64,000 bases of DNA from an uncultured Acidobacteriota bacterium (GTDB taxonomy: Bacteria; Acidobacteriota; Thermoanaerobaculia; UBA5066): NCBI GenBank assembly GCA_963779415.1, contig CAVZYA010000002.1:187291-251290 (forward strand). Direction: 5' to 3'. Below the pieces are notes generated by a model. That model had not been told where the DNA came from. It saw only the letters and a list, made by a program, of their open reading frames with translations, and ran no database searches. Every line of letters starts with the position of its first letter. The first letter of the stretch is position 1. Made by a program: the position numbers and the translations under genes. Below are positions 648-32,795 of this stretch, piece by piece.

Positions 648-1571
648 TCAGACCGCTCGGGCTTCCATGAGAATGCGCTCGATCTCGGCGTCCTTGGCTT
701 CCCAGATTCTCCGGACGTCAGCCTGGATACGTTCGCGGAAGGCGGCATCCTCCTGGTAGTCACCCGTGAACCAGTCGGGCGGGATCGGAATCTCGCGGGC
801 GCGTACGACGACCCGAGGAACGCCACGCGAGAGCAGGTCCCAGACGGTCGGCCGGCCGCCGGGGTAAACGATCGTCACGTCGAGAAGCGAGCGGAGTGTC
901 GGACCCATCGCCGTCGCCGTGAAGGCGACGCCCCCCGTTTTCGGCGGGAGGAGGTGGCGGAAAACGTTCCCGGACCGCGCCTGCTTCTCGGGAGTGAAGC
1001 GGGTTCCTTCGGCGAAATTCAGGATGGAGACCGGAACGTCCCGGAAGCGCTCGCACGCCCGACGCGTCGTCTCGAGATCCTCCCGGCGCTTCTCCGGGTG
1101 CTTCTCGAGGAACTCCTTCGAATGCCGCTTCATGAACGGGAAGTCGAGGGCCCACCAGGCCGCCCCGAGGACCGGCACCCAGATCAGTTGTTGCTTGAGG
1201 AAGAAGCGAAGGAACGGGATCCGGCCGAGGAAGACCCGCTGGAGGACCGGGATGTCGACCCCGGACTGGTGGTTGGGAACGACGAGATAGGACGCGTCGC
1301 GCCGGAGGGACGAGGGCAGCTCGACCTCCCAGCGCGTCGGCTGTGTGATCGCGAGCCCCCACGAGTTCACGGCGATCCACGACTCGCCGATGGCGACGAG
1401 CCCTCGCGAGGAGAGCCGCCGCCAGGCCGGAACGGGGACGACGAGCTTCGCGAGCGTCAAGGCGAAGAGAAGCGCACACCAGAAGAGCGTATTCAAGACG
1501 AAGAGGAGAAACGTCAGCGACCCGACGAGAAGGCGGACGGGCGCTGGGGCGGGGCGGTACCCGGCGGACAC
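648..1571 (-). CDS. PlsC-family (lysophospholipid/lyso-lipid) acyltransferase
   Basis: HX4D motif 'VVPNHQSGVDIPV', second motif 'FAEGTRFTPEK' and an N-terminal transmembrane helix. Confidence 0.75.
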   Translation of the reverse strand: MSAGYRPAPAPVRLLVGSLTFLLFVLNTLFWCALLFALTLAKLVVPVPAWRRLSSRGLVAIGESWIAVNSWGLAITQPTRWEVELPSSLRRDASYLVVPNHQSGVDIPVLQRVFLGRIPFLRFFLKQQLIWVPVLGAAWWALDFPFMKRHSKEFLEKHPEKRREDLETTRRACERFRDVPVSILNFAEGTRFTPEKQARSGNVFRHLLPPKTGGVAFTATAMGPTLRSLLDVTIVYPGGRPTVWDLLSRGVPRVVVRAREIPIPPDWFTGDYQEDAAFRERIQADVRRIWEAKDAEIERILMEARAV

Positions 1572-2221: not shown

Positions 2222-3517
2222 TCAGCCGAGGGCCACGTCGGCTTCGGCCCGGGCGATGAGGGCCCCGAGGTAACGCGACTTCACCTGCTCGCTCGCGAGA
2301 GCCCGCTTCACGGGCGGGAGCTTCAGGACCGCCCCGAGAACCGCGCCGAGGATCCGGTGGCTCGCGAGCGTCCGGTCGTCGAAGACGAGGTCGGCGAGCT
2401 GTCCTCTTTCGAGCGCCATGACGACCGTCCGGTGAACGGTGTCGAGGGGCGGAATCATCCGGCGCTCGCGCCGGACGAGACGGAGAGCCTTCGGGCGGCA
2501 GGTCGGGACGCAGACGCCGCAGCCGAGGCACGCGCTTTCCTCGAGGCGGACCGTCCGCTTCTTCGGCGCCTTCGGATCGTTCGCCGAGACGAGGCCCATC
2601 GCCTCGACCGGACAGGCGGTCGCGCACTTTCCGCATCCGTCGCAACGCTCGCGGTCGATCCGGGGAATGAAGCCCGTCGTGTGAACCGGCTTGAGAAATC
2701 CGAAGCGCCGCTGAGCGATCAGCGCCTCGCAGCAGCAGCCGCAGCAATTGCAGATGAACGCGGGGCGTTTCTGCACGTTCTCGCCGAACTGGACGAGGCC
2801 GCGCCCACGCGCCGCATGGAGGAGGTCGAGTGTCTCGGCCTCGTCCGCCCGCCGGGCGAAGCCGTGCCGGATGAGCGACGAGGCCGTCGTCCCGAAGGTC
2901 ATGCAGATCTCCATCGGGGCGTCGCAGGCGCGGCCGAGATGCTGCATCTTGTGCCGGCAGTAGCAGACACCGACGCCGATGTCCGAGGCCTCGCGGACGA
3001 CCTCCGACGCCCTCTCCCAGTCGAGCACTTCGAGCGCGTCCCCGTCTTCGAGCACTTCCTCGTTCACGAAGGTCCGCCCGAGCTGCGTCTCGCCGCGGGT
3101 GAAGAGGTCGCGGACGAACTCTTCCTCGACGTTCAGGTACCGGTAGAAAAGCTCCGCCAGCGCCTTCTGGTCGACGTCGCCGCGGACGCGCATCATCGAG
3201 AACTCGAAGAAGCCGGCCATCGGCGGCGGGAGGACCCAGCGCGTTTCGCCCCCTCGGACCGCGTCGACCAGAAGGGCCCTCCCGGCAAGAGCTTCGAGGA
3301 TCGGGCGGGCCTCGTCCGGCGTCATCTTCCACGCCCGCGCGGCCGTCCCGGCGGTGAAGGGCCGGATCGGGAGCCGGGCGACCAGCTCGGCCTCGCGCTC
3401 GCTGAAGAGGATCCGGAGGATCCGGAAGAGGAGGTCCGCCGGCGGGGCGCCCTGCGGGAACCGGTTCAGGCGGCCGACGAGATCGTGGTAGCCGGAGCGG
3501 GCCGTCGCGTGTGCCAT
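2222..3517 (-). CDS. Iron-sulfur protein with two ferredoxin-type 4Fe-4S motifs and an extra Cys-rich cluster
   Basis: CDGCGKCATACP and CLGCGVCVPTCRP (CxxCxxCxxxCP) plus 'FICNCCGCCCEAL'. The ATG (MAHATAR...) chosen inside ORF 2222..3658 is my choice; no RBS was checked. Confidence 0.65.
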   Translation of the reverse strand: MAHATARSGYHDLVGRLNRFPQGAPPADLLFRILRILFSEREAELVARLPIRPFTAGTAARAWKMTPDEARPILEALAGRALLVDAVRGGETRWVLPPPMAGFFEFSMMRVRGDVDQKALAELFYRYLNVEEEFVRDLFTRGETQLGRTFVNEEVLEDGDALEVLDWERASEVVREASDIGVGVCYCRHKMQHLGRACDAPMEICMTFGTTASSLIRHGFARRADEAETLDLLHAARGRGLVQFGENVQKRPAFICNCCGCCCEALIAQRRFGFLKPVHTTGFIPRIDRERCDGCGKCATACPVEAMGLVSANDPKAPKKRTVRLEESACLGCGVCVPTCRPKALRLVRRERRMIPPLDTVHRTVVMALERGQLADLVFDDRTLASHRILGAVLGAVLKLPPVKRALASEQVKSRYLGALIARAEADVALG

Positions 3518-3650
3518 GAAGCCCTCGGGTGCCCCCCCGGATCGTACCTCCGGCCGCACCACGATCGCCCTGCCTCGGGAACCCGGCCGACGTCGCCGAC
3601 GGAGGGGGCTTCCTCTGCTATCTTTCCGTTCGAACATCGAGGAAGACGGC

Positions 3651-4235
3651 ATGATCACGAAACTGCTCGACGGGAACCGTCATTTCGTCAAGGAGACGTT
3701 CGAGAAGGATCGCGAATTCTTCGCGTCCCTCGCCAAACGCCAGAGGCCGACCGTTCTCTGGATCGGCTGCTCCGACTCGCGCCTCACGGTCAGCACGATC
3801 ACGAACACGCGGCCCGGCGAGGTCTTCGTCCACCGGAACATCGCGAACATTGTCGCGACGAACGACTGGAACCTGAGCGCCGTTCTCGAGTTCACGATCA
3901 ACCACCTCCAGATACCCGACGTCGTCATCTGCGGCCATTACAACTGCGGCGGGATCGCGGCGCTCGACCGGGGCGACAGCGAGGACAGGTACATCCCGAT
4001 CTGGCTCATCAACGCCTCCGCCGCCATGAAGCGCGTCGACGAGAAGATCGAGGCGCTCCACACGGAGCTGGAGCCGGGACAGCGGCTCCGGCTGATCGTG
4101 GAGGAGAACGTCCGGCTCCAGCTCGAGCACCTGAGCGAGTACCCGTTCGTCAAGCGCGCCTGTGACGCCGGGAAGCTGACGCTACACGGCTGGGTCTACG
4201 ACATGGGGACGGGAGAGATCAGGATCCTGGCGTGA
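3651..4235 (+). CDS. Beta-class carbonic anhydrase
   Basis: CSDSR ... HYNCGG zinc-ligand motifs; ATG at 3651 (MITKLLDG). Confidence 0.85.
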   Translation: MITKLLDGNRHFVKETFEKDREFFASLAKRQRPTVLWIGCSDSRLTVSTITNTRPGEVFVHRNIANIVATNDWNLSAVLEFTINHLQIPDVVICGHYNCGGIAALDRGDSEDRYIPIWLINASAAMKRVDEKIEALHTELEPGQRLRLIVEENVRLQLEHLSEYPFVKRACDAGKLTLHGWVYDMGTGEIRILA

Positions 4236-6021
4236 CGGGGCGGACCACGAGGCGGAACTCGTCGCCCCCCGGTCGAAGGACGCGGAGCGCGACCGGCTTT
4301 CCGTCGACCCGCTCGAACGTGACGAAGACTCCAAGGACGCCGGCGACCTGAAACGCATCGGCCGAGACCGGCACGAGAACCAGGCTCGGCTCGCCCGGAA
4401 ACTCGATCCGGAGCTTTCCCTTCGCCTCGGTCACGCGCGCCTCGATCGGACGGCTCTCTCCCGCGTAGCGCCCGATGAATCGAGCCCGTTCCGCCTCGGC
4501 CATCGGAACGGCCTTCCGGATGGGGGAGATAAGGGTGAACGGAGGGCGGAGGATCTTCGAGAGGCACGAGACGTCCAGCTCCTTCGCGCTTCCCTTTTCG
4601 AGGAACTCACCGACGAGCGCTTCGAGGCAGCTCGCTTCCTCGAGCCCCTCGTGCCCGTGAGCCCCGTGCGGGACGACCAGCACGCGGCCGTTCGGGAGCG
4701 TCCGCGCCGCCTCCTCGGCCAGCGACGGGGGGGTGGCAGGGTCCCACTCTCCGACGACGAGGAGGGCCGGCGCTTCGGACCGAACCGCTCTGGCGTAGTC
4801 CTCGGGGACGGAGCCCCGAGGCCAGACGCCACATGCGGCACGCTGCTGCCGGAGGCGGTAGTCGCCGAGATAGGTTCCCTCGGCGGCCTTCTCGCCCTCG
4901 CCCGGCCTGATGAAGGGAAGGTCTTCCGCGCAGGTGACGGAGAGATACATCCCCATGCTCCCCGACGCCACGATCTCCTTCCGTGCGAAGAGGGCGAACG
5001 CGGCGAGCGCGTCGAAGTTCCCGCCGGCCGCTTCGTGGAGCACGACGGGGACGAGACTCGCCCACCACACCTGATACGTCATGTACCGGATCGCCTCGCC
5101 GACGATGTCCCGGGAGAGCGTGACCTTCACGGGATCGCCCGTCGCTGGGTCGTACGTCTCCGCGGGCAGCGGACCGGCGGCGGCGCGCCCGAACACGGCG
5201 GCCGCTTCGGCGGCCAGCTTCGGAAAGGCGCGGTGACAGGCCGGCTCGGCCGCGCATTCGGAGAGGACGCCGTCGAACGCCCGCTGGGCCTTCTTCGGAA
5301 TCGCAAGCGGCATGTGATCCGTCGTCGGCTCCACGCCTTCGAGGACCGCCGAGCGCACGTGCTCCGGATGGCGCCTCATGTAGACGAGGGCCGCCCTCGT
5401 TCCGTAAGACCCCCCCACGAGATTGATTCGCCCGTACCCGAGCGCGGCGCGGACGTCGTCCAGGTCGTCCATGGCGATCGGCGTCGTGTAGAGACGGAGG
5501 TCGGCGTCCTTTTCGAGAGTGGCCTTGCACTTTCGGACGGCCTCGATCGGGAGAAAGTCGCCAAGAAGGCGCTGAGGGTCGGCACTTCCTCCGAAGAGAT
5601 CGCAATCGAGCGGATGAGACGCGCCGGTGCCCCGCTGATCCACGAGGACGATGTCTCGCCGCTCCCGGATGGCAGCGAGCGCGAAGGCGAAACCGGCCGC
5701 TTCTTCCGTCGCCGCTGCCCCCGGCCCGCCGGTGAGGATGAAGAGAGGGTCGGGCGCCGCCGGCGGCTTCGTGGCGGGCAGGACGACGACCTTCAGATCG
5801 ATCGTTCTCCCCCGTCGCGCCGTCCGATCCTCGAAGACCGCCACCCTGCCGCAGAGCGCCTTCGTCGAGACGCCCGGAAGGTCGCACGGCGAAAGGGGGA
5901 CCGTCGGCGTCGCGCCCGCGGACTCGGTGGCGAGAATCCGGTCTCCGGGCCACGCTAGAGCGCTCGCGACGGCGAGGGGGAGAAGGATCGAAATCCGCAT
6001 CGTCGTCCTCCGGCTCTTCAT
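4219..6021 (-). CDS. Secreted alpha/beta-hydrolase (S33/TAP-like peptidase family) with a C-terminal extension
   Basis: Signal peptide MKSRRTTMRISILLPLAVASALA and nucleophile elbow 'GGSYGTR' (GxSxG). It is convergent with the carbonic anhydrase, with a 17-nt overlap. Confidence 0.7.
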   Translation of the reverse strand: MKSRRTTMRISILLPLAVASALAWPGDRILATESAGATPTVPLSPCDLPGVSTKALCGRVAVFEDRTARRGRTIDLKVVVLPATKPPAAPDPLFILTGGPGAAATEEAAGFAFALAAIRERRDIVLVDQRGTGASHPLDCDLFGGSADPQRLLGDFLPIEAVRKCKATLEKDADLRLYTTPIAMDDLDDVRAALGYGRINLVGGSYGTRAALVYMRRHPEHVRSAVLEGVEPTTDHMPLAIPKKAQRAFDGVLSECAAEPACHRAFPKLAAEAAAVFGRAAAGPLPAETYDPATGDPVKVTLSRDIVGEAIRYMTYQVWWASLVPVVLHEAAGGNFDALAAFALFARKEIVASGSMGMYLSVTCAEDLPFIRPGEGEKAAEGTYLGDYRLRQQRAACGVWPRGSVPEDYARAVRSEAPALLVVGEWDPATPPSLAEEAARTLPNGRVLVVPHGAHGHEGLEEASCLEALVGEFLEKGSAKELDVSCLSKILRPPFTLISPIRKAVPMAEAERARFIGRYAGESRPIEARVTEAKGKLRIEFPGEPSLVLVPVSADAFQVAGVLGVFVTFERVDGKPVALRVLRPGGDEFRLVVRPVTPGS

Positions 6022-6173
6022 ACGGACCGGACGCGCCTCCGGTTCCTGTTTCGATGGGATCTGCGGAAGGCCTTGACCCGCGCCGCGCCGAGGATCAGAC
6101 TCCGGATTCATCGCGTTAACGCTCCTGGGACGGCGCGGCCGCCTGGCGCTGGCGTTCACGGCGGGAGGTCTTC

Positions 6174-8099
6174 ATGCCCCGGGTTCTTCTCACGAGCGTC
6201 TGTCGCCCCCTCGGGGAGCGATACGGCGACGCCCCGAGCGTCGGCTATGAGCTTCTCTTCGGACAGGTGACGCGGGCGCAGGGGCTGTTCAGCCCGCGCG
6301 CCAACCACGTGCAGTTCTCCCTCGAGTACGTCGCGGAGAACCTCGACGCGCCCACGACGGTTCTTCACTACCCGAGCCGGCGCGAGCTGGCGAGGGAGCT
6401 CGCCAGGGGTTACGACGTCGTCGGGATCTCCTTCGTCCTCTCGACGTTCCACCGGATGAAGGAGGCCGTGGCTCTCGTCCGGAAGCACTCCCCGTCCTCG
6501 AAGATCGTCCTCGGCGGGTACGGAACCGTTCTCTCCGACGAGGTCCTCCGGCCGTTCGCCGACCACGTCTGCCGCGAGGAGGGCGCCGGTTTCATGCGGC
6601 GCCTTCTGGGCGAGCCGGCCGCGGAGCCGCCCCTGAAGCACCCGCTCGTCGTCAGCCGTCTCCGGCTCTTCGGCCGCGAGGTTTCGCGGACCGGCATGGT
6701 CTTCGCGGGCCTCGGGTGCCCCAACGGCTGCGACTTCTGCTGCACCTCCCACTATTTCAAACGGAAGCACATCCGCCTGCTTCCGACCGGACGCGACATC
6801 TACCGCGTCATCCAGCGGTACCTCGATGTCGAACCCGGCATGTCCATCGCCATCCTCGACGAGGACTTCCTCCTGAACCGGGCGCGGGCAATGGAGTTCC
6901 GGGAGTGCGTCCGCGAGGGGAACCGGCCTCTTTCGATCTTCGCCTTCGCGAGCGTGAAGGCCATCAGCCAGTACTCGGTCACGGAGATCCTCGAGATGGG
7001 AATCGACGGGCTCTGGATCGGGTACGAAGGGAGCCGATCGGGATATTCCAAGCAGTCGGGCCGTCCTGTGGAGGAACTCTTCGTGGAGCTGCGCGATCAC
7101 GGGATCAGCATCCTCTCCTCGATGATCGTCGGCCTTCCCTATCAGACGCCGGAGATCCTCGAAGCGGAGCTGTCGCACCTCCTGGACCTGAAGCCGACCC
7201 TTGCCCAGTTCCTGATCTACGGCCCGACTCCGGGAACGCCGTTCTTCGAGAGAGTCAAGAACGAGGGGCTGTTCCGTGAAGAGGTCGCGACGGATCCCGA
7301 AGGCTACTACCGGCGCTGCACGGGCTTTTCTTCCGTCGTGAAGCACCCCGCGATGACTGCGGCCGAGATCGAGGCGATCCAGGAGCGCTGCTTCCGGGAG
7401 GACCTCCGGCGGCTGGGTCCGTCGATCTACCGATCGCTCGAGACCTGGGCCCTCGGCTACGAGAAGCTGAAGGACTCCGCCAGCTCCCTCCTCAGACAAA
7501 AGGCCGATCTCTTCGCTCGCGAGATCCGGAAGGCCTACCCCGTCCTCCTCGCCGGAAGGTTGCTGGCCCCCGGGCGGGATGTCCGCCGCCGCATTGGAGA
7601 GCTCGAGGAACGGATCCATCGCGCGCTGGGGAGACCGACCCTCGTCGAGCGCATGCGGTCCGGCGTGGCCATCGCTCTCGCCGCGTGGACCGGCCTGATC
7701 CTCCGGCTCGGCCTTTTTCAGCACCCTTCGCTCACGCGGCACACGTTCCGGATACCGGAGGAGTCGCTTCCCTCCCGGGTCTGGCGCCGCCTGCGCGGGC
7801 ATGACGCTGAGGGCCATCGGGTAGAGGTCGAGCTGCGGCCCGAGGCGACCGTCTGGGTGACCGTCGCCGGCCGGCTGTCGCTTTCCGGAGCGGACCGGCT
7901 CGCCTCCGGGCTCCGGGATGGCCTGAATCGCCGGAAGGAGCGGCTCGTTCTGGATCTGGCGCGACTGGCGCAGGCGGAGCACGAGGCGCTCGAGGAGCTC
8001 GCGGAACGCCTGCGCGACTACCGGGGCCGGATTCGGGTCGTCCTCCCTCCCGCTGGGGAGTTCGCCACCCTGGCCGCCGTCTTCGCGCTCTATCACTGA
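6174..8099 (+). CDS. B12-binding-domain radical SAM protein with a C-terminal STAS-like domain
   Basis: N-terminal cobalamin-binding Rossmann-like region (KIVLGGYG) and the radical SAM cluster motif 'GCPNGCDFCC' (CxxxCxxC). The last ~100 aa match an anti-sigma-antagonist/STAS pattern (VWVTVAGRLSLSGADRL...LVLDLARLAQ). Confidence 0.75.
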   Translation: MPRVLLTSVCRPLGERYGDAPSVGYELLFGQVTRAQGLFSPRANHVQFSLEYVAENLDAPTTVLHYPSRRELARELARGYDVVGISFVLSTFHRMKEAVALVRKHSPSSKIVLGGYGTVLSDEVLRPFADHVCREEGAGFMRRLLGEPAAEPPLKHPLVVSRLRLFGREVSRTGMVFAGLGCPNGCDFCCTSHYFKRKHIRLLPTGRDIYRVIQRYLDVEPGMSIAILDEDFLLNRARAMEFRECVREGNRPLSIFAFASVKAISQYSVTEILEMGIDGLWIGYEGSRSGYSKQSGRPVEELFVELRDHGISILSSMIVGLPYQTPEILEAELSHLLDLKPTLAQFLIYGPTPGTPFFERVKNEGLFREEVATDPEGYYRRCTGFSSVVKHPAMTAAEIEAIQERCFREDLRRLGPSIYRSLETWALGYEKLKDSASSLLRQKADLFAREIRKAYPVLLAGRLLAPGRDVRRRIGELEERIHRALGRPTLVERMRSGVAIALAAWTGLILRLGLFQHPSLTRHTFRIPEESLPSRVWRRLRGHDAEGHRVEVELRPEATVWVTVAGRLSLSGADRLASGLRDGLNRRKERLVLDLARLAQAEHEALEELAERLRDYRGRIRVVLPPAGEFATLAAVFALYH

Positions 8100-8149
8100 A
8101 GAAACGCCCGCCGTCGGCATTTGCCGCAGCCCGGGCATATGATTTCCGC

Positions 8150-8746
8150 ATGAAGATCGCCGCGACTCTTCTCCTTGCCGCCGCCGTCGCGGGGACGGCA
8201 TCGGCCCAGGAGGCCGTGCCGACTCCCATACCGCAGAGCGTGGTCGTTCCGTCGCTCCCGGACCAGAGGAACAAGGAGACCAACGTCAAGCCGAGCGGCG
8301 CTCTCGCGACCGACGCCGCCGGCTGGGTCCGGAACGGTCCCGACGCGACGGGTGGAAGCACGACGACGCCGAATCCCCGGAACGCGCCCTCGAGGGTCTC
8401 TCCGGGCGGAGGCGCGGGAGGAGGCATCCCGGCCCCTCCGCCCGCTCCTGCTCCGAGCGGGCCGGCGATCGTCAACGCGGCCTACGTCTCGGTTCACGGC
8501 GTCGTGAAGGCGTACCGGCCGGGGACCTCGATCACCGTCGTCGATGCCTCGGGACGCGAGCGGACCGTTTCTCTCGCACCGAACGCGACCATCTACGAAG
8601 GGCTCCGGGCGGGAGACAAGGTCGTCCTCCGTATCCCGCTCGAAAAGCCGGCGAACGGCAAGTCAGCGGACAAGATCGAGAAGGAAAAGCCGAAGACGGC
8701 CCCGCCCAAGTCGAAGTTCGCGGCGGCGCAGGCGCCCGCAAACTGA
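8150..8746 (+). CDS. Secreted hypothetical protein with a Gly/Pro-rich middle and a Lys-rich tail
   Basis: Signal peptide MKIAATLLLAAAVAGTASA and no recognisable catalytic motif. Its first ~20 codons are duplicated at 11691. Confidence 0.55.
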   Translation: MKIAATLLLAAAVAGTASAQEAVPTPIPQSVVVPSLPDQRNKETNVKPSGALATDAAGWVRNGPDATGGSTTTPNPRNAPSRVSPGGGAGGGIPAPPPAPAPSGPAIVNAAYVSVHGVVKAYRPGTSITVVDASGRERTVSLAPNATIYEGLRAGDKVVLRIPLEKPANGKSADKIEKEKPKTAPPKSKFAAAQAPAN

Positions 8747-8775: not shown

Positions 8776-11652
8776 ATGAGCCTTGCCACCGGCACCCGGC
8801 TGGGTTCCTACGAGATCCTCGCGCCTCTCGGCGCGGGAGGGATGGGGGACGTCTACCGGGCTCGGGACCGAAAGCTCGACCGCGACGTCGCGATCAAGGT
8901 TCTGTCCGAATCTCTTGCCCGGAATCCGGACGCCCTGGCTCGCTTCGAGCGCGAGGCGAAGGCCGTGGCGGCTCTCTCGCATCCGAACATCCTGGCGATC
9001 CACGACTTCGGAAGCGACGCGGGCGTCTCCTACGCCGTGACGGAACTGCTGGAGGGCCGAACGCTCCGCGACCGGCTCGACGCCGGACCGATTCCCCTCG
9101 AGCAGGCCCTCGACTACGCGCTCCAGATCACCCGGGGGCTCTCGGCCGCGCACGAGAAAGGGATCGTCCATCGCGACCTCAAGCCCGAAGACCTCTTCGT
9201 CACCGATGACGAGCACCTGAAGATCCTCGACTTCGGCCTCGCGAAGAGGACCGAAGAGGAAACGCCGGGCGACGAGACGAGCGCGCCGACGGTCCTGCGC
9301 CAGACGCAGCCCGGGACCGTGATGGGGACGGCAGGCTACATGTCGCCGGAGCAGGTGCGCGGCCGGCCGGTCGACCTCCGGTCGGACCTTTTCTCGTCCG
9401 GTGCGGTCCTCTACGAGCTGGTCTCAGGACGGCGGGCGTTCCGGCGTGACTCGGCGGCCGACACGATGTCCGCAATCCTCCGGGACGAGCCGCCGCCGCT
9501 CTCCGCGTCGGACCCGCCCGTTCCCGATGCCCTCGCCGACGTCGTCCGCCGCTGCCTCGAGAAGGAGCCCGCCCGACGCTACCAGAAGGCCTCGGAGATC
9601 AGCGCCGACCTCCGGCGGCTCGTCCGGGGCGACCGCCCCGCCGCATCCGCTCCGGGAGACGGGAGCCGCCCCGCGGAGTCCCGGCCGGCGGGCGTCCGTT
9701 CCGAACGCAGCGCCGTCGGCAGTGGAGGGCGGCGCCTTCTCCGCGGCGGGTTGATCGCGGCCGCCGCGGCTCTCGCGCTCGCCGTCGGCAGCTTCTGGAT
9801 CGGGTCGCGCCGGGCCCCGAAGCTGACCAGCAGGGACACGATCGTCATCGCCGACTTTGCCAACTCGACGGGCGAGAGCGCCTTCGACGGCAGCCTCCGG
9901 CAGGCCCTGACGATCCAGCTCGAGCAGTCGCCCTACCTGAAGCTCCTCTCCGCCCAGAGCGTCCGGTCAACCCTCAAGCTGATGAACCGGCCGCCCGACG
10001 CGCCGCTCAACGCCGAGGCGGCCAGGGAGGTCTGCCAGCGCAGCAACTGCAAGGCCGTCGTGTCCGGCACGATCGACCGGATCGGGAGCCACTACCTCAT
10101 CGGGCTTCGCGCGCTCGACGCGCAGAGCGGCGACGCCCTCGCCAGCGCCGAGGCGGAGGCGACCGGGCGGGACGACGTCCTGCGCCGGCTCGCGGGCGCC
10201 GCCAACGACGTGCGTACGAGGCTCGGCGAGACTCTCGCGTCCGTGCAACGCCACTCGACGCCGCTCGGCCAGGCGACCACGTCGTCGCTCGACGCGCTGA
10301 AGGCCTACACGGAAGGGGTCCGCGTCCAGTGGACGCAGGGCGACGCGGCCTCGATCCCCTTCCACCGGCGGGCCGTCGAGCTCGACCCGGAGTTCGCGCG
10401 CGCCTACGCCACCCTCGGCATGGCCTTGTCGAACGTGGGGCGGACGGACGAAGCGAGCGAGAACTTCACGAAGGCCTTCCGGCTCCGGAGCCGCGTCAGC
10501 GATGCCGAGCGCTTCTACATCGAGGCGACGTACTACGGCTACGTGACGGGAGAGCTGGAGAAGAGCAACGACGTCTACCGCCAGTGGATCGCCGTCTACC
10601 CCGAGGTCACGACGCCCTACGTGAACATGGCCGTCAATCTCATGCTGATGGGGCGGTACGACCTCGCGGCCGACGGGCTTCGGAAGGCGATCCGCGTGAA
10701 CGCCGAGTCGGGCGGAGGCCTCCTGAACCTCGTGGAATGCGAGGTCAGCCTCGGCAGGCTGGATGAGGCGAAGACGCTTTTCGCGCAGTCGGTCTCGAGG
10801 TTCCCCGGCTCGAGGTTTCTCCACCTTCAGGGGTACGAGATCGGCTTCCTCCTGCGGGACGACGCCCTGATGCAGCAGCAGCTCGACTGGGCGCGCGGCC
10901 GTCCCGGCGACGAGGCGGCGCTCCTCTGGGCGCACTCGGAGACCGCTGCCTCCCGCGGCCGGGAGGCGGAGGCCCGCGCCCTCGCCGAGAGCGCCGTGAG
11001 GCAGGCGAAGGCCGCCGAGAACGCGGAGCAGGCGGCCCAGATGACGGCCTGGCTGGGCCTGCGGGAAGCGGACCTTGGAAACGACGCGACGGCGCGCCGG
11101 CGTGCCCCGGAGGCTCTCGCGATCCGGGACGGCCGCGACGAGAGGGTCGCCGCCTCGCTCCTCCTCGTCCGCGCCGGAGACGCCGCCGGGGGGCTGAAGA
11201 TCGCAGACGGGCTCGACCGGCAGTTCCCCGCCGACACGATCCTCCAGAACTACTGGCTTCCCACGATCCGCGCGTCCGCTGCGCTGGCGGCGCACCGGCC
11301 GGAGGAGGCGCTCGCGGCGCTGGAGCGGACGAGGCCTTACGAGACGGGCGACCAGGGCTGGGGCCTTCTCTATCCGATCTACGTCCGCGGGCTCGCCGAC
11401 CTCGCGGCGAAGCGGCCGGAGCCGGCCGCTGCCGAATTCGGCCGGATGCTCGCGAATCCCGGGATCCTGAGGAACTCCCTTCTCCGGCCTCTCGCCGAGC
11501 TGCAGCGCGCCCGGGCACGGAGAATGAGCGGCGACGTCGAGGCGGCGCGGACGGGCTATCGGGCCTTCCTCGATGCCTGGGCGGGAGCCGATGGGGACCT
11601 CACGGCCTTGAAGGAAGCGAAGGCGGAACTCGCGGCGCTGCCACGGCCATGA
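8776..11652 (+). CDS. Hanks-type Ser/Thr protein kinase with a transmembrane helix, a TolB-N-like periplasmic domain and C-terminal TPR repeats
   Basis: LGAGGMGDVYRA ... AIKVL ... HRDLKPEDL ... DFGLAK ... GTAGYMSPE, then a TM segment and TPR-like helical repeats. Confidence 0.85.
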   Translation: MSLATGTRLGSYEILAPLGAGGMGDVYRARDRKLDRDVAIKVLSESLARNPDALARFEREAKAVAALSHPNILAIHDFGSDAGVSYAVTELLEGRTLRDRLDAGPIPLEQALDYALQITRGLSAAHEKGIVHRDLKPEDLFVTDDEHLKILDFGLAKRTEEETPGDETSAPTVLRQTQPGTVMGTAGYMSPEQVRGRPVDLRSDLFSSGAVLYELVSGRRAFRRDSAADTMSAILRDEPPPLSASDPPVPDALADVVRRCLEKEPARRYQKASEISADLRRLVRGDRPAASAPGDGSRPAESRPAGVRSERSAVGSGGRRLLRGGLIAAAAALALAVGSFWIGSRRAPKLTSRDTIVIADFANSTGESAFDGSLRQALTIQLEQSPYLKLLSAQSVRSTLKLMNRPPDAPLNAEAAREVCQRSNCKAVVSGTIDRIGSHYLIGLRALDAQSGDALASAEAEATGRDDVLRRLAGAANDVRTRLGETLASVQRHSTPLGQATTSSLDALKAYTEGVRVQWTQGDAASIPFHRRAVELDPEFARAYATLGMALSNVGRTDEASENFTKAFRLRSRVSDAERFYIEATYYGYVTGELEKSNDVYRQWIAVYPEVTTPYVNMAVNLMLMGRYDLAADGLRKAIRVNAESGGGLLNLVECEVSLGRLDEAKTLFAQSVSRFPGSRFLHLQGYEIGFLLRDDALMQQQLDWARGRPGDEAALLWAHSETAASRGREAEARALAESAVRQAKAAENAEQAAQMTAWLGLREADLGNDATARRRAPEALAIRDGRDERVAASLLLVRAGDAAGGLKIADGLDRQFPADTILQNYWLPTIRASAALAAHRPEEALAALERTRPYETGDQGWGLLYPIYVRGLADLAAKRPEPAAAEFGRMLANPGILRNSLLRPLAELQRARARRMSGDVEAARTGYRAFLDAWAGADGDLTALKEAKAELAALPRP

Positions 11653-11912: not shown

Positions 11913-12071
11913 ATTCCCGCCCGACGTGAGGCGGCCCTGGCCGTTCCGGTTCCCTCAGAGCCCGAGTGACGAAGGCGTGCGCGCCGAGAGGCTCGCGACC
12001 CCGAACCCGGTGACGTGAGTCACACGATGCCAACCCTCCCCCTCGGCACGCGTCTATCCGTTTCCCGGAGG

Positions 12072-14069
12072 ATGAGTCTCATGATGATTTCGAGCCCAGG
12101 GGCGCGGTCGTTCTTCCTGGCGGCGGCACTCCTCTCGATCGCGGGGACCGTGACGGCCGCTCCGACCGGGCCCGCAGGGCCGAAGCCGCCGGACGCAAAC
12201 CCGGAAAAATGGCCCCGGAAGATCCAGCTCGGGGAGATGAAGGTGCTCCTCGACGCCCCGGAGGCCGAGAGCCTCGAGGGGACGTCGCTGAAGGCGCGCG
12301 GCCCGCTCCGGGTGGAGGGCCCGGGAGAGACCGAGCCGTCTTTCGGGACGATCTGGTACGAGGCCGACGTCGAGATCAACCGGGCCCGGCGGATCGTCAC
12401 CCTCGTCTCCGTCCGAGTCCCCCGAGTGCAACTGGAAGGCGCCCCTCCGGCCCGGCAGCAGAGGCTGGCCACCCGCCTCAGCCGGGCCGTGACCCGTCTC
12501 CGGCTGAAGCTGTCCCTTGACGACGTCCTCGCCTCGGCCCGGATGGCACCCCTCCGCGAGGGGGAGCCCGCGAAGCTCGGCACCTCGCCTCCGAAAATCC
12601 TCTTCGAGACCGAGCCGGCCATCCTGGTCCTCTTCGACGGCGAGCCGCGCTTCCGCACCGTCGAGGGAACCGGGCTGGAACGGGCTCTCAACACCCCGTT
12701 CCTCGTCCTGCGCGAGCCCTCCGGGAGCGCCTTCTACCTCGACGGAGGCACCGTCTGGTTCCGGGCCCCCGAGGCCGCGGGACCCTGGTCGAAAGCCGAC
12801 CACGTCCCGCAGGAGGCCACGGGAATCGCCCGGCAGGACCGGAACGAGGCCGGAATCCCCGAGAAGGACGTCGACGAGGCGAAGAAGACGGCAGGAAGCC
12901 GCCTCCCGAAGATCCTCGTGGCGACGGAGCCGACGGAGCTGATCGTTTCCGAGGGATCGCCGGAGTGGAAGGACGTGGTGACGGGCGAGCTCGCCGCGAT
13001 GAGCAACACCGAAAGCGACGTCTTCCGGACACTCCCGGATCACCGGTTCTGGGTCGTCCTCTCCGGACGCTGGTACCGGAGCGATTCTCTCGGCGGGAAT
13101 TGGACGTGGGTCGAGCCCGACCAGCTCCCCGAAAGCTTCCGCCGCATTCCTAAGGACTCCACCAAGGCCGCCGTCCTCGCCTTCGTTCCCGGCACCGCGA
13201 CTGCCCGGGAAGCCCTCAAGGACGTGAGCACCCCCCGCACGGCGGCGATCCGCCGGAAGGACGCCCACGTGACCGTGACGTACGACGGCGATCCGAGGTT
13301 CGAAGCCGTTCCGGGAACGCATCTGGAGTACGCCCTGAACAGCCCGGAGCAGGTTCTCCGTATCCGCGGTCGCTACTACGTCTGTGACCAGGGCGTCTGG
13401 TTCACGTCCGGCACGCCGGAGGGTCCGTGGCATGTCGCGGATTCGATCCCCGAGGAGGAGATCCGGACCATTCCGCCCGAGAGCCCCGCCTACAACACCC
13501 GCTTCGTCACCGTCTACGACTCGACTCCCGACACGGTTTACGTGGCGTACACGCCTGCCTATCTCGGCTCTTATCCCTGGTACGGCACGGTCGTCTTCGG
13601 GACGGGTTGGTACTACCGGCCCTGGTGGGGCGCGTTCTACTACCCCAGGCCCTGGACGTGGGGATTTCATCCCTGGTACAGGCCGTGGGGTGGCTGGGGG
13701 TTCGGTCTCGGCTGGGGGCCAGCGTGGGCCGGGTTCCGATTCGGCTTCGGGCTCGGCTGGGGGGCCCGGTGGTGCGGACCGGGCGCGTTCTACCGGGCCG
13801 GCCTCGTGGCGAACGTGAACCGGAACGTGACTGTCAACCGGAACGTCTACAACTCGGGGGCGAACCAGTCCCGCGCCATGACGACACAGACCGCCACGTC
13901 GAAGACCCCGACTTCGAAGTCCGCGAGCGCAAGAAGCGCCGGCTCGAAGAGCGGCGCCAAGGGCAAGGGCGCGGGAGCGACACCGCACGGAAAGGGGGGC
14001 GCGAACTCGAAGGGGGCTGTGGCGCACGCCGCGAAGGGGGGACACGCCCATGGTGGCGGCAAGAAGTGA
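12072..14069 (+). CDS. Secreted protein with three ~70-aa internal repeats, a Trp/Gly/Tyr/Pro-rich C-terminal segment and a Lys/Gly-rich basic tail
   Basis: Signal peptide MSLMMISSPGARSFFLAAALLSIAGTVTA. Repeats at aa ~190-260, ~300-370 and ~410-480 (TEPxxLxxxxGxPxF..V.GT.LEYALN...VLR...G.YY...G.WF.......GPW). 'WYYRPWWGAFYYPRPWTWGFHPWYRPWGGWGFGLGWG' resembles YXWGXW-type repeats. Confidence 0.6.
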   Translation: MSLMMISSPGARSFFLAAALLSIAGTVTAAPTGPAGPKPPDANPEKWPRKIQLGEMKVLLDAPEAESLEGTSLKARGPLRVEGPGETEPSFGTIWYEADVEINRARRIVTLVSVRVPRVQLEGAPPARQQRLATRLSRAVTRLRLKLSLDDVLASARMAPLREGEPAKLGTSPPKILFETEPAILVLFDGEPRFRTVEGTGLERALNTPFLVLREPSGSAFYLDGGTVWFRAPEAAGPWSKADHVPQEATGIARQDRNEAGIPEKDVDEAKKTAGSRLPKILVATEPTELIVSEGSPEWKDVVTGELAAMSNTESDVFRTLPDHRFWVVLSGRWYRSDSLGGNWTWVEPDQLPESFRRIPKDSTKAAVLAFVPGTATAREALKDVSTPRTAAIRRKDAHVTVTYDGDPRFEAVPGTHLEYALNSPEQVLRIRGRYYVCDQGVWFTSGTPEGPWHVADSIPEEEIRTIPPESPAYNTRFVTVYDSTPDTVYVAYTPAYLGSYPWYGTVVFGTGWYYRPWWGAFYYPRPWTWGFHPWYRPWGGWGFGLGWGPAWAGFRFGFGLGWGARWCGPGAFYRAGLVANVNRNVTVNRNVYNSGANQSRAMTTQTATSKTPTSKSASARSAGSKSGAKGKGAGATPHGKGGANSKGAVAHAAKGGHAHGGGKK

Positions 14070-14076
14070 GGCCGAG

Positions 14077-16843
14077 GTGAGACACGCTCTCGCGTCGGCG
14101 ACTCGGGCGATTCCGGCTCTGATTCTCTCGATCGCCGCGTCGCAGCCGGGAGGTGCGCAGCCGGGCGCAGAGGTCCCGCAAGCAGCTCTGGCCGGAAGTG
14201 CCTCGAAGCTCGTCCCGATCGTCCTGGACCTTACGGCGCGGAGCGAGCACTTCACCACCGAGTTGACTCTGGCCAACCGGGGAACGACGGCCGCCGCCGT
14301 GCAGCTCACCTACACGCCCGCGACGTCTCTCGGTGCCTCCGGCGGCGGCACGGCCGGCCTCTCCCTCTCTCCCGGCCAGCAATTCGTCGTCTCCGACGCC
14401 CTCGCCTTCCTCCGCAGCCAGGGGCTGCCGATCCCCACCCCCTCCGCCAGCCAGGGCGGCACGCTCCTCGTCTCCTTCACCGGCCTCTCCTCCTCGATGC
14501 CGCCTTCGTCGGCGCCCGGACGACGACCCCCTCCGGAGCCGGAAGAGCCGGCCTCGCCTACCCGGGCATCGATCTCTCCGCGGCCCCCACGGGCCCCTCC
14601 TACCTCTACGGCCTTCGCAGCTCGCCTACGGATCGCTCGAACCTGGCGCTGGTGAACGCCGGAAGCTCGCCCGTCACCCTCCGCGTCACCCTCTTCTCCG
14701 GAACCGCCGGCGACAGCCGCTCTTACGTCCTCTCCCCCGACACGACCCTCGGCCCCTGGCAGTGGACCCAGATCGACCACGTCCTCGACCTTGCCGGCTA
14801 CACCGACGGCTACGCGCGGTCGAGCTCGTCTCCGGGACCGGGCCCTACGTCGCCTACGCCGTCTTCAACGACGACACGACCAACGACGGCTCTTACGTCG
14901 CCGCGGAACCGGCCTCGATGCCTCCGGAGATGCGGCTCCTCCCGGTCCTTGTCGAGAGCGGCTCCTTCCAGAGCGAACTCGTCCTGACGAATCCGCTCTC
15001 CGTGCCGCAGACGGCCTCGCTGACGTTCGTCGAGTCTTCCTCGCCGACGCTGGGGACGGGCGGCAGCCTCACGCTCAGCTTTCTGCCGGGCGAGCAGAAG
15101 ATCATTCCCGGCGCTCTCGACTACCTTCGCCAACACGGGGTCTCGATCGGGCCCAAGGGATCGGCCACCTACGCCGGAACCCTTTCGGTCACGTTCCAGA
15201 GCGGGACGAGCGTCTCGACAGGGTTCGTCGGAGCGCGGACGGCGACTCCCGTCGGCGGAACGGGCCCAGGGGAGTATGGTCTCTTCTATCCGGGGACGGG
15301 CCCGAGCTTCGCCGCCCTGAATGAGGCCTGGGTCTACGGCCTCCAGCAGAACGCCGGGAACCGCTCGAACGTCGCCGTCGCGAATCTCGGGGATGCCGGA
15401 GATTCGATCATCTACCGGATCGACGTCTACGACGGCGATACCGGACAGCTCGCCGGATCGATCTCCCCGCCGACGCTGGCCCCCGGCGGCTGGGCACAGG
15501 TCGGCGCGATCCTCCGATCCTTCAACGTGTCGAACGGCTACGCGCACCTCGTCAAGCTCTCCGGCAACAGCCACTTCCTCGCCTACGGCGTCGTCAACGA
15601 CGGCGGGGCCCCCGGCGAGGGGACCTCCGACGGAAGCTACGTCGCGGGACAGGTCGTTCCGGCTCCCGTCGCCCTCACCTGGATCCCCGGCTCCTCCGTC
15701 AAGGTGGAGCAGCTCCTCGGCGACTGCGACTGGCCCGACCTGGAGCAGCGAAGCGTCTGCACGCCGACGGCCAGCCAGACGATCACGAAGAACGATGTCG
15801 AGGGGACGGACCTCGGCTACTCGTTCGAGACTCCGAACGGGCTCATGTTCCTCTTCGGCGACACGATCGGGACGAAAACGCTCTATCACGCGGGCGACAC
15901 GACGGCCCTGAGCCAATCGACGGACCCCGCGGGAAAGGTCCTTCTCGATTTCCTGACGAACAGCGACGGGAGCACGTACCTGATCAAGCCCCCGGGAGTC
16001 GCGATGGGGGCGGACGACGTTCCGGACTCCGGAATTACCCTGAGCGGCCAGATCTACATCCTCTGCAGCACGGGCTCGGACACCAGCCTTCCGAACCCTC
16101 ACGTCAACGATCAGCTGATCCTGACGAAATTCGACCCTTCGACGAAGAACATCACGACAGGGCGGACGATCTCGACGATGCCGGAAGGGCACTTCGTCAA
16201 CATCGCGCTCCACGCCTCGGGAACCGACGTCCTGATGTTCGGACTCGGGCTCTACCGGGCCACCGACCTCTACCTTGCGTCGGTTCCGGCGGCCTCCTTC
16301 GAGAGCGGAATCGGGACGCGCTATTTCGCCGGCCTCATCGACGGCCAGCCGACCTGGACCGACCAGGAGTCGGGCGCGGTCCCGATCGTGGTCGACAACC
16401 CGCTCGGCCACACGCCACCGGATCCCCCCACGATCGGAAACGTCTCCGTCGTCTACTCGCAGGACCTCGGCCTCTGGCTCATGACTTACGACGGAGGGCG
16501 CCAGACCGAGGCGACGAACGGCGTCTACTTCTCGTACGCGTCGAACCCGTGGGGGCCCTGGAGTCCGCCCCAGCTCATCTTCAATGCAAAACGAGACCAC
16601 GCCCTCGGGGTCTTCATCCACGATCCGAGCCTCGTTCCGGACGACCTTCTGGACGGGCCCACCATCAACCCGACGAACAACCCCCCGGCGACCACCCGGG
16701 GAGGCGTCTACGCGCCCTTTCAGATCGAGCGATTCACGACGGTCGTCGGCGACACGCTGACGATCACCTACACGATGTCGACCTGGAATCCCTACACCGT
16801 CGTCAGGATGCGGTCTGAATTCACGATCGCGCACGCGCCGTGA
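14077..16843 (+). pseudogene. Frameshifted paralog of the downstream gene. It encodes a secreted protein with two copies of the novel ~200-aa domain and a DUF4185-like C-terminal domain, and needs two -1 shifts to read through
   Basis: The reading frame moves from frame 1 (14050 ORF) to frame 0 (14652 ORF) to frame 2 (14333 ORF). Comparison with the nt sequence at 17270-17600 shows single-base deletions near 14494-14499 and 14815-14830. Confidence 0.6.
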
Positions 16844-19587: not shown

Positions 19588-19605
19588 GGGATAAGGAGCC
19601 GTGCG

Positions 19606-22600
19606 ATGGAACCGAGCGTGACGAAATCAGGCTTGACCTGGTTGCTCCTCGCGATCGTGACGGCGGCAGCTCCCGGACTCGCCCAGTCGACGACGCCGAT
19701 CCCGCCGGAGTTCTTCGGCGTGGCCATGGTCAACGCGAAGGACCCTCCCGCGGTGCCGATGGGGACGATTGCCCACGGGGACTTCGCCTGGCAGCGGGTC
19801 GAGCAGCAGAAAGGGGTCTTCGACTTCTCGATCCTCGACGCGTACGTCGCGGCGGCGCAGGCGGACGGACTCGTGGACGCGGTAACGAACACGGCGAGCG
19901 TGGCGATCACGCTCGCCGCCGGGACGCCGGGGTGGGCGGTCGCGGACAAGAGCACGTGCGGGACGACCGGCGGCGTCGTCGTCTGCACGGCTCCGCCCGA
20001 CGACATCCAGGACTGGAAGGATTTCGTCACGGCTCTTCTCGCCCACTACGACGGCACGGCGCAGCCGCACATCCGGATCTACGAGCTTTGGAACGAGTTC
20101 AACGTGTCGCTTTGGTGGACCGGCACGAACGCCCAGATGGTCGCGCTCGCACAGGCCGCGTACCCGATCGTTCACGCGGACCCGAACTCGATCCTTCTTA
20201 CTCCGTCCGTCGCCGGCCCGGTCGGGACGGCGTCGCTGCACAGCGGCGTCACGCACATGACGTCCTACCTGCAGGCGGGCGGCGCCGCATACGCGGACGG
20301 AGGCGCCTTTCACGGGTACGTCGGGGCGCAGGGCGGCGTGAGCCCCTTCCCGATGCCCGAGGACGACGGGACTCCGGGGTGCACCCCGTTCGTGACCTGC
20401 TACGGTTCCATCGTCACCAAGGCGACGCAGATGCGTACCGTCTTCGATGACTACGGTCTCCTCGGCAAGCCGATCTACCAGACCGAAGGGAGCTGGGGGA
20501 ACAACACGGTCACCGACCCGGACACGCAGACGGCCTGGATCACGCGGTACACGCTTCTTCAGGCGGGGCTGCGTTCGTCGGTGAACCTCCAGCTGGCGGC
20601 GTGGTTCACCTGGGCGCCACCCGCCTTTGGCTGGGGGACCATCGAAGACTCGTCGGGCAACCCCACGCCCGCAGGCGCCGCGTACCGCGAGGTCTACCAC
20701 TGGCTCGTCGGGGCGACGCTCGCCCAGCCCTGCTCGAGCGGCGTGGACGGCACGTGGACCTGCTCGCTTACGCGTCCGGGAGGTTACGTCGCGAAGGCCG
20801 TCTGGAACACGAAAGGACCGGCGACGTATTCGCCGGGGACCGGCTATACGCAGCTGCGCGACGTCACGGGCGCCACGACGCCGATCCCGCCGGGGGGCTC
20901 GGTCGCGATCGGCGCCAAACCCGTCCTCGTCGAGGGGAGCACGCTCGCGCCCCCCGGCGCCCCGAACATCGTCCTGATCCTGACGGACGACCAGGACGTT
21001 CAGAGCGGGATGCTCGCGTACATGCCCCACCTGCAGGAGCTGCTCGTGGCCCGGGGGACGTCGTTCCCGAACAACATGGTCCCGCTCTCGCTCTGCTGCC
21101 CCTCGCGCACGACGATCCTGCGGGGCCAGTACCCGCACAACACGGGGGTCCTCGGAAACTCGCTGCCGAACGGCGGCTTCGAGAAGGCGTACAACGAAAA
21201 TGTCGAGGCGTCCACGGTCGCGACGCTCCTCCACGGGGCCGGTTACCGGACCGCGCTCTTCGGCAAGTACCTGAACGGCTATCCGGACACGGCCGACGGG
21301 TTCTACATTCCACCGGGCTGGGACGAGTGGTACAGCCCGATCTCCGGCGACCCGTACAGCGAGTTCAACTACGGCCTCAACGAGAACGGCAAGAAGTTCT
21401 CGTACGGCAGCACCGCCGCGGACTATGGGACGGATGTCTACCTCGGCAAGGCCGTCGACTTCATCCAGCGCGCCGCGTCGACGCCGAGCCAGCCGATCTT
21501 CGTCTACTTCGCGACGTACGCGCCTCACTCGCCCTATACGCCGGCGCCCCGCCACGCCGGCCTCTTCCCCGGCGTCACGGCCCCGCATTTCCCGTCGTTC
21601 AACGAGGCGGACGTGAGCGAGAAGCCGGCGTACATCAATACGAAACCGCTCCTGACGCCGGCGGACATCGCGGGCATCGACTCCGACTTTCAGGGACGCT
21701 TGCAGGCGCTCCAGGCCGTCGACGAGGCCATCGCGACGCTCGTCTCGACGCTCTCGGCCACCGGCCGCCTCGCGAACACGTTCCTCGTCTTCGCCTCGGA
21801 CAACGGTTACCACATGGGCGAGCACCGTCTCCTACCCGGGAAGTACACGCCGTACGAGACCGACATTCACGTCCCGCTCGTCATCCGAGGCCCCGGCGTC
21901 CCGGCGGGCGTGGCACGCAGCGAGTACACGGCGGACCTGGATCTCGCGGAGACGTTCGCCGATCTGGCCGGCGTCCCCCCGCTCTCCTTCTCGGACGGGC
22001 GCTCGCTCAAGCCGCTCCTGACGGGGCCGCCCCCGTCCGCATGGCGGCAGGCGTTCTTTCTCGAGGAGTTCGGGACCGGCGAGTTCGATCCCCCGGACGT
22101 CCTCGCCGGCACACCCCGCGAACCGCTCGACAAGCAGGATCTCGCGACGACGGTCCCGATTCCGAGCTATTACGGGTTCCAGGCGACCGGCTACAAGTTC
22201 GTCGCTTACAAGTCAGGAGAAAAAGAGCTCTACGTCGCCTCGGACCCGTACGAGCTGGCGAACGTCGCGTCGAAGGTCAGCCCGGCGATCGAAACTGCCC
22301 TCGCGTCCTACCTGAACTCGTTCGATGGCTGCGTGGGGGACGCCTGCCGAGCCGCCGAGGCCGTCGCCCCGCCCGCGCTCCTGACGGCGTCTTTCACCGT
22401 CACCCCTCCGGCGCCCCCGAGTGGGGCCGCCGTGACGCTCACGGCGACGGCGAGCGGCACCGCGCCCTACACATACGCATGGACGGTCGACGGCACGCCC
22501 CAGAGCGGCGCGAGCATCGTTCTCCATCCGTCCGACGGGAGTCACGGCGTGACGCTGGACGTTCACGACTCGATCGGGGCCGAGGCCATCGTCACTCAGA

Positions 22601-32718: not shown

Positions 32719-32795
32719 TGGCCTGCCCGGCCGGATTCGAACCGGCGACCCTCGGCTTAGAAGGCCGATGCTCTGTCCAACTGAGCTACGGGCAG
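32719..32795 (-). tRNA. tRNA-Arg (anticodon TCT)
   Basis: 77-nt cloverleaf folded by hand: acceptor CTGCCCG/CGGGCAG, anticodon stem TCGGC/GCCGA with loop CTTCTAA, T-arm GCCGG-TTCGAAT-CCGGC and an encoded CCA. Confidence 0.8.

Follow-up and report, generated by a model that had tools for sequence, protein, structure and literature searches.

The gene examined here encodes a radical SAM enzyme with a C-terminal STAS domain. It lies in a 64,000-nucleotide stretch of DNA, referred to as the window, from an uncultured Acidobacteriota bacterium of the Thermoanaerobaculia (UBA5066; GenBank assembly GCA_963779415.1, contig CAVZYA010000002.1, positions 187,291 to 251,290 of the forward strand). The open reading frame (ORF) is complete, and its product is a single polypeptide in which five parts follow one another: a Rossmann domain of the cobalamin-binding type, a radical SAM barrel, a helical extension of the class-B type, a strongly hydrophobic helix and the C-terminal STAS domain. 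Features of the gene are listed below in window coordinates. Relatives and their loci are cited by number (P and L, respectively) where they have to be told apart.

Catalytic part and hydrophobic helix

6163..6168, + strand: Shine-Dalgarno-like GGGAGG, read off the sequence, 5 nt 5' of the ATG
6174..8099, + strand: complete radical SAM-STAS ORF, ATG start, 641 amino acids (aa) plus stop
6174..6623, + strand: Rossmann-type cobalamin-binding-like domain, residues ~1-150
Residues 151-355, + strand: radical SAM core, a partial TIM barrel; PF04055 match at residues 180-330 (6711..7163)
6717..6740, + strand: CxxxCxxC [4Fe-4S] cluster motif, C182/C186/C189; sequence GLGCPNGCDFCC, residues 179-190
7164..7628, + strand: helical C-terminal extension of the class-B type, residues ~331-485; AF2 helices between 356 and 485
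7662..7718, + strand: most hydrophobic segment and candidate membrane anchor, residues 497-515, GVAIALAAWTGLILRLGLF
7809..8096, + strand: STAS (SpoIIAA-like) domain, residues ~546-641

The start of the ORF was backed by the conserved N-terminus of its homologs (M-x-R/K-V-L-L-T-S), and the GC content at third codon positions (0.87, in a window of 69% GC) was like that of other real genes. An antisense ORF of 681 aa (6156..8201, - strand) covers the entire gene; because codon-position GC favours the + strand, this ORF was rejected as a GC-rich shadow. No riboswitch or other RNA element was detected upstream by an Rfam scan, which gave three tRNAs only in the window. The protein database was found to hold an identical protein, and the nearest named relatives (85-89% identity) were from metagenome-assembled genomes (MAGs) of Thermoanaerobaculia.

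A preliminary description, made from the letters of the window, had proposed a cobalamin-binding domain at the N-terminus and a radical SAM core with a CxxxCxxC motif, and both proved correct. The B12-binding family PF02310 was matched at residues 73-143 with 34.6 bits (Pfam cut-off 32.1) and the Radical_SAM family PF04055 at residues 180-330 with 30.1 bits (gathering cut-off 29.5), while C182, C186 and C189 were invariant in 40 diverse family members with identities as low as 26%. The N-terminal domain holds an insert of about 35 residues (12-48) that is nearly invariant and modelled at low confidence. To the equivalent of the helical extension in one relative (P0127), DUF4070 gave a weak match. 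Downstream of the core only two cysteines, C382 and C406, are present; no SPASM/twitch (BtrN-like) cysteine-rich motif was found, nor was any such family matched in Pfam or NCBIfam. An AF2 model of the full-length protein had a pLDDT of 70.8.

The protein is covered by no curated family: for the window protein and 39 relatives, all NCBIfam matches were far under their cut-offs. The best of these was HpnJ (50.2 bits against a cut-off of 577.6), which topped the list in 37 of the 40 family members, and HpnR, the ladderane B12/radical SAM family, BchE, ApyD, PhpK and AprD4 were also matched far below threshold. AprD4 was the sole sequence match of the protein in the PDB. Identity with Tes/GDGT-MAS or bacterial Mss was considered and rejected, as the solved Tes (7TOL) gave no sequence match in the PDB search.

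Between the helical extension and the STAS domain, residues 497-515 reach a Kyte-Doolittle 19-residue mean of 1.84, the maximum of the protein, with a low hydrophobic moment. This stretch lies within a helix assigned to residues 490-515, of which the AF2 model shows 490-512, and a conserved linker (FQHP...R..T.R.P, residues 516-545) joins the helix to STAS. Arginines flank the hydrophobic helix on both sides; thus, an in-plane or monotopic membrane anchor would be preferred over a true membrane span.

The STAS tail, its spread and the partner-switching question

The tail was examined by profile searches and structure prediction. When compared alone to PF13466 (STAS_2), the last 94 aa aligned to 77 of the 80 model positions with an E value of 2e-4 and 21.9 bits, below the cut-off of 29.2. 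By contrast, a profile of 23 homologous tails (23-82% identical to the window tail) that was searched against PDB sequences retrieved SpoIIAA of Geobacillus and Bacillus (E values of 3.2e-7, 5.7e-7 and 8.9e-6) and TM1442 (1e-4), with weaker matches to RsbV, MlaB and RsfB. The alignment spanned residues 5-104 of the 119-residue SpoIIAA chain. The homologous tail of one relative (P0147) passed both Pfam cut-offs (STAS_2, 31.7 against 29.2 bits; STAS, 29.9 against 22.6), and the tails of P0132, P0140 and P0155 gave weaker PF01740 matches. Structure prediction, which the preliminary description had advised, returned a beta-beta-alpha-beta-alpha-beta-alpha fold with a pLDDT of 79 (about 90 in the core) that is superposable on solved STAS domains, and a Foldseek search of the PDB with this model gave leading matches that were nearly all STAS (SpoIIAA, RsbV, RsfB, RsbS, SLC26, MlaB and YchM-STAS/ACP). 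Taken together, these results settle that the C-terminal domain is STAS, far beyond chance, as had been proposed. The competing assignment, that the C-terminus is a BtrN-like auxiliary region, is ruled out by the two downstream cysteines and by the position of STAS, which lies past the helical extension usual for class B (end near residue 485).

The gene is one member of a large clade, as yet uncharacterised, within the class-B radical SAM enzymes. The protein database contained more than 2,900 homologs, the best 120 of which were all about 640 aa in length, 68-100% identical and from MAGs of Thermoanaerobaculia, Polarisedimenticolia and others. An exhaustive search of 50%-identity representatives gave 4,331 clusters at E values below 1e-3 and 284 below 1e-30. 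A scan of one genome per GTDB species located at least 590 stretches that encode a relative. The best 80 of these were 56-75% identical, all from MAGs, and from Acidobacteriota, Planctomycetota, Verrucomicrobiota, Gemmatimonadota, Binatota, Ignavibacteria, Elusimicrobia and Chloroflexota. Among the best 120 matches of two database searches and the best 80 genome loci, all records that carry an organism name were MAGs, with no cultured host. The 80 loci, six further loci obtained by exact protein look-up and the window (87 loci in total) were used for the comparisons that follow.

Of the 87 loci, 79 had a STAS tail, at 56-89% overall identity and from no fewer than eight phyla. Seven ORFs that are complete and share 60-73% identity in the core were without STAS and ended 20-30 residues past the FQHP motif, and many relatives of 520-550 aa aligned to residues 1-527 only and are likewise STAS-less. 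Conversely, P0132, P0140, P0155 and P0157 keep a homologous tail at 33-38% identity, and a rough neighbour-joining tree built from the core had STAS-bearing proteins in at least four places. The mean pairwise identity of the tail was 60%, compared to 80% for the catalytic core (26 homologs of the close family), and R555, E557, W561, G566, D594, R619 and R621 of the tail were invariant among homologs. Based on the tail-less close relatives, the scattered tree positions and the 60% identity, the STAS tail is an optional module, repeatedly gained or lost and, where present, under purifying selection.

These same observations bear on whether the tail is merely a structural or oligomerisation add-on that carries no ligand, partner or regulatory information. 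Its evolutionary dispensability, its lower conservation relative to the catalytic domains and the presence of RsbS among its fold matches (stressosome STAS domains form oligomeric scaffolds) would fit such a role. The retention of the tail across phyla, its invariant residues and the occupation of the same position by a ligand-binding SCP2 domain in another branch all argue against it, and we consider a purely structural tail rather improbable.

The combination of domains had been put forward as an undescribed architecture. This holds for the searchable literature, as full-text searches turned up no publication on a fusion of STAS with radical SAM, the family is without an NCBIfam model, and a 2026 review of lipid-modifying radical SAM enzymes leaves STAS unmentioned. 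It does not hold for the databases, where the fusion is common and labelled automatically: some members are listed in IMG as 'radical SAM superfamily enzyme YgiQ/anti-anti-sigma regulatory factor', and precomputed Pfam matches pair PF13466 or PF01740 with PF04055 and PF02310.

SpoIIAA, RsbV and RsfB share with the window tail the fold and sequence homology over the whole domain. Together with TM1442, these are true anti-sigma antagonists and the nearest solved relatives of the tail by sequence, and coupling of the radical chemistry to a partner-switching input had been suggested. By this explanation, STAS would link stress signalling to radical SAM activity: a kinase of the SpoIIAB/RsbW type would phosphorylate it and a PP2C phosphatase would reverse this, both from genes at other sites of the genome, or STAS would sequester such a kinase. 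Unlike these single-domain proteins, however, the window tail is fused to an enzyme and has its phospho-serine replaced. In the profile alignment, M-D-S-S-G of SpoIIAA aligns with A-E-H-E-A of the window protein, such that H603 is the equivalent of the phospho-serine (Ser58). Among 208 STAS-bearing members, position 603 was most often Arg (40), Pro (39) or Val (26), followed by Ser (17), Ala (15), Asp (13), Gln (12), His (10), Glu (10), Gly (9), Thr (7) and Lys (6). Thus, a minority of 24 members (12%) have Ser or Thr at the phospho-site, and a phosphorylatable residue is not conserved.

The neighbouring genes are consistent with this result. No cognate kinase or phosphatase of a partner switch was found among the window genes scanned. 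In a Pfam census of the 145 nearest flanking genes of the family, 226 families were matched, none more than five times; SpoIIE/PP2C was absent from the 25 commonest, and HATPase_c was matched twice, equal to HisKA. Hanks-type kinases do occur near the gene in 9-13 of the 87 loci, including the window, but about 8 loci were estimated by chance. As the genome is kinase-rich (two in 64 kb), a kinase beside the STAS gene is uninformative, and the Hanks-type neighbours were rejected as STAS kinases. A classical phospho-dependent partner switch is unlikely on these grounds, to which the loss of the tail in close relatives may be added, and the partner-switching explanation as a whole, with its components encoded elsewhere included, is one that we regard as quite improbable.

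The two Hanks-type Ser/Thr kinases of the window are encoded at 8776-11652 (+) and 30212-32671 (+) and have long tetratricopeptide-repeat (TPR) tails.

Candidate lipid substrate

The chemistry of class-B radical SAM enzymes includes difficult alkylations and rearrangements, and the function of most families is unassigned. The reading that we favour, tentatively, is of a membrane-held enzyme that performs radical chemistry on lipid tails, with STAS as a non-phosphorylated docking or ligand-presenting module. The enzyme would be held by its hydrophobic helix at the cytoplasmic face of the membrane, and a SAM-derived radical would act on a carbon, itself unactivated, in the tail of a membrane lipid. 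C-methylation would be the likeliest reaction, since methylation is what most class-B enzymes perform; desaturation, cyclisation and C-C cross-linking, as in the archaeal Ted, Grs and Gms, would be alternatives. The partner that STAS may dock or present could be an acyl carrier protein (ACP), lipid, redox partner or second subunit. STAS may instead gate the active site, and its part would correspond to that of the SCP2 lipid-binding domain that stands in its place in a related branch.

A docking or gating role without phosphorylation is suggested by the missing phospho-site, the optional nature of the tail, the exchange for SCP2 and the precedents of MlaB, SLC26 and YchM. STAS domains are otherwise known in anti-sigma antagonists, SLC26 transporters and MlaB. 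In MlaB of the Mla phospholipid transporter, the SLC26/SulP transporters and the YchM STAS-ACP complex (PDB 3ny7), STAS is a C-terminal or accessory, non-phosphorylated domain that makes protein contacts on a membrane machine, and these cases are precedents for a link to lipid or ACP. Their matches to the window tail were weaker than that of SpoIIAA and their machines are transporters, whereas the window protein is an enzyme. ACP or ATPase binding by the window tail would be an analogy to these cases.

A membrane lipid as substrate is suggested by the hydrophobic helix, by lipid-type and hydrolase fusions in relatives, by PlsA/Ger, LPAAT and MMPL neighbours (described below) and by the weak matches to HpnJ, HpnR and the ladderane family, which stand beside matches to non-lipid families such as BchE, ApyD and PhpK. 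The hopanoid enzymes HpnJ/HpnP/HpnR, the ladderane family TIGR04072 and the archaeal GrsA/B, Gmm, Cgm and Ted have a three-part catalytic architecture in common with the window protein; the archaeal enzymes were compared by their descriptions only. For these lipid-tail enzymes, membrane attachment or substrate binding by a C-terminal helix is reported or predicted, and none is reported to carry STAS. In descriptions of the archaeal lipid B12-radical SAM enzymes, it is a C-terminal helix that binds them to the membrane (bioRxiv 10.1101/2025.10.20.683597; PMC13459092), and the hydrophobic helix of the window protein is a parallel to it. The class-B enzymes TsrM, TokK, Mmp10 and CysS, and AprD4 as the nearest solved, are only about 15% identical to the window protein and have neither STAS nor the hydrophobic helix.

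Relatives that share a homologous core of about 500 residues at 30-35% identity were found to differ in their accessory domains. In P0179, an SCP2 lipid-binding domain (27 bits; cut-off 21.3) occupies the C-terminal position of STAS. P0210 has an N-terminal multi-pass membrane domain of 265 residues that is Caroten_synth/CruF-like (24.4 bits, just under the cut-off of 25), and fusions of this type were found in P0203, P0250 and P0260 as well. P0220 ends in an apolipoprotein-like helical tail, matched very weakly at 17 bits (cut-off 90), and P0216 (902 aa; L089 8001-10709) is fused to a haloalkane-dehalogenase-like alpha/beta hydrolase (E value of 4e-48).

Among the neighbouring genes, PlsA/Ger-type proteins of about 1,400 aa with two acyl-CoA-dehydratase-activase domains were found to adjoin family genes in five loci, as follows.

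L058 4510-8754 and L063 3161-7408, same strand as the family gene: PlsA/Ger-type genes directly upstream of it, Planctomycetota
L039 1585-5796 and L069 2508-3575: PlsA/Ger-type genes within ~4 kb of the family gene, the family genes being Verrucomicrobiota-like
L089 13756-17928: PlsA/Ger-type gene 3 kb from the distant hydrolase-fused member

We estimate that about 0.3 such loci would be expected by chance for a gene that occurs about once per genome. DUF2229 was recorded in the L089 copy, and a layout of two activase domains plus DUF2229 is that of the PlsA/Ger ether-lipid architecture (PMC13159169). These neighbours are a possible link to anaerobic ether-lipid synthesis. A second set of neighbours accompanies a CruF-fused member (L087 97-15837), which clusters with an MMPL/sterol-sensing transporter, another three B12-radical SAM genes, a large aminotransferase, an acetyltransferase and a protein of the metallo-beta-lactamase fold. 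Together these resemble a gene cluster, as yet uncharacterised, for a lipid or natural product. In the window itself, a YihG-family 1-acylglycerol-3-phosphate acyltransferase (LPAAT) is encoded nearby.

648..1571, - strand: YihG-family LPAAT, NF058536, 382.9 bits (cut-off 260)

In L001 the divergent gene next to the family gene encodes an ortholog of this LPAAT (82% identity), and L002 has a PF01553 gene 1 kb upstream. LPAAT is a possible functional neighbour, by a weak link that is restricted to close relatives.

Several points weigh against a lipid-tail enzyme. No conserved operon or partner was detected when the ORFs around the gene (±8 kb and ±3 kb) were clustered for the 87 loci, nor by the census of flanking genes, each lipid-related neighbour is confined to few lineages, and the lipid-suggesting fusions sit in relatives at only about 30-35% identity. 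A real membrane span by the hydrophobic helix would put STAS outside the cytoplasm, which would be unprecedented and at odds with a docking role. Confidence in the full-length model is no more than moderate, and binding and use of cobalamin are predicted from the B12-binding domain. The closest solved relative, AprD4, is a diol dehydratase and no methylase, thus a B12-binding domain is no proof of cofactor use; AprD4 is not known to use cobalamin. Finally, no member has been studied and cultured hosts are absent, which leaves no lipid phenotype for comparison.

Some of these points would equally fit an enzyme that acts on a soluble small molecule, a cofactor or a peptide or protein, in the manner of AprD4, BchE, PhpK or the ApyD enzyme of RiPPs (peptides made on the ribosome and modified after translation). 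In such an enzyme the hydrophobic helix would be buried or form a dimer interface, and STAS would bind an anionic ligand or nucleotide or mediate oligomerisation. AprD4, the best PDB match, acts on an aminoglycoside; the BchE, ApyD and PhpK matches are similarly weak to those of the lipid families; the gene stands alone in most genomes, without a lipid operon; and the STAS domains of SLC26/SulP transporters are tied to anion transport. Against a soluble substrate, no conserved precursor-peptide or natural-product cluster surrounds the gene, the add-ons of the wider family are lipid-oriented (SCP2, the carotenoid-hydratase-like membrane domain and the very weakly matched apolipoprotein-like tail), and the PlsA/Ger, LPAAT and MMPL neighbours recur in independent lineages. 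On balance we judge a soluble substrate to be unlikely, while taking it as a serious contender.

The clade is strongly conserved (56-75% identity between phyla), occurs in several hundred species-level genomes and is probably responsible for an activity of anoxic soils and sediments that is significant but unstudied, and a role for STAS on an enzyme would broaden the known uses of this fold. If the lipid-tail reading is true, the family would join the few enzymes by which bacteria alter inert lipid tails in an oxygen-independent way, with a bearing on the biosynthesis of bacterial branched and membrane-spanning lipids. A more far-reaching version, which we rate as a long shot, is that the protein is the founding example of a widespread oxygen-independent lipid-tail methylase or cross-linker that works with Ger/PlsA ether-lipid synthesis, with STAS as a new lipid/ACP docking or gating module. 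The hosts would be uncultured Thermoanaerobaculia, Pedosphaerales, Planctomycetota, Gemmatimonadota and Binatota of soil, peat, groundwater and sediment, and the enzyme could supply a missing step to branched or membrane-spanning lipids such as the brGDGTs (branched glycerol dialkyl glycerol tetraethers). The latter serve as palaeoclimate proxies.

Further observations at the family loci and in the window

Two single cases were observed among the loci of relatives. In L006 (582-7256), the family gene, which encodes the STAS-bearing P0140 (35% identity), follows a complete arnB-arnC-arnA-arnD-arnT-like operon for lipid A aminoarabinose, and in L093 the family gene is near genes for a geranylgeranyl-reductase-like flavoprotein and NnrU. 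Cold-shock-type genes (an RNA-recognition-motif (RRM) protein, initiation factor IF-1, a DEAD-box helicase and a cold-shock-domain (CSD) protein) were found just upstream in several lineages.

L002 2444-9471 and L005 326-2076: cold-shock-type neighbours
L037, L038, L042, L045 and L049: cold-shock-type neighbours, upstream
L050 and L084: cold-shock-type neighbours

These may hint at temperature-linked expression, by a weak signal that is partly phylogenetically clustered.

With regard to the hydrolase fusion of P0216, a divergent alpha/beta hydrolase is encoded at 4219-6159 of the window. It bears no similarity to the fused hydrolase domain, and a Rosetta-stone link was rejected. Many plain radical SAM(-STAS) proteins (P0004, P0005, P0057, P0078 and others) are called 'haloalkane dehalogenase' in IMG, a wrong name that probably spread from hydrolase fusions such as P0216.

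Between the LPAAT and radical SAM genes, a 478-aa protein (2222-3658, - strand) has a two-[4Fe-4S] ferredoxin domain at residues 331-390 and a 330-residue N-terminal part without a family match; it could in principle be an electron donor. Downstream, a 198-aa proline-rich protein without a family match is encoded at 8150-8746 (+), with its own promoter-like site at 8114-8143, and has a conserved counterpart (63% identity) on the downstream side of the radical SAM-STAS region in L001.

A cobalamin-binding protein had been pointed out as a second B12-associated gene of the window. The gene (32810-33589, - strand) does encode a real, stand-alone corrinoid protein with B12-binding_2 and B12-binding domains, which is AerR/CarH-like in that its best NCBIfam match is CarH, a light-sensing repressor, and it is without a DNA-binding domain. 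No supporting evidence was found for a functional link to the radical SAM-STAS gene, from which it is 25 kb away and on the opposite strand. A tRNA gene (32722-32795, - strand) adjoins it.

Elsewhere in the window, four very large ORFs lie on the same strand at 11970-24309 (+) and encode proteins of 684 aa (no family), 836 aa (DUF4185), 922 aa (no family) and 1,573 aa (sulfatase plus PKD). Two MacB/FtsX-type ABC permeases and an HlyD-family adaptor, of the efflux or lipoprotein-release type, are encoded at 36628-40427 (-) and are followed by tRNA genes at 40522-40606 and 40699-40789 (-).

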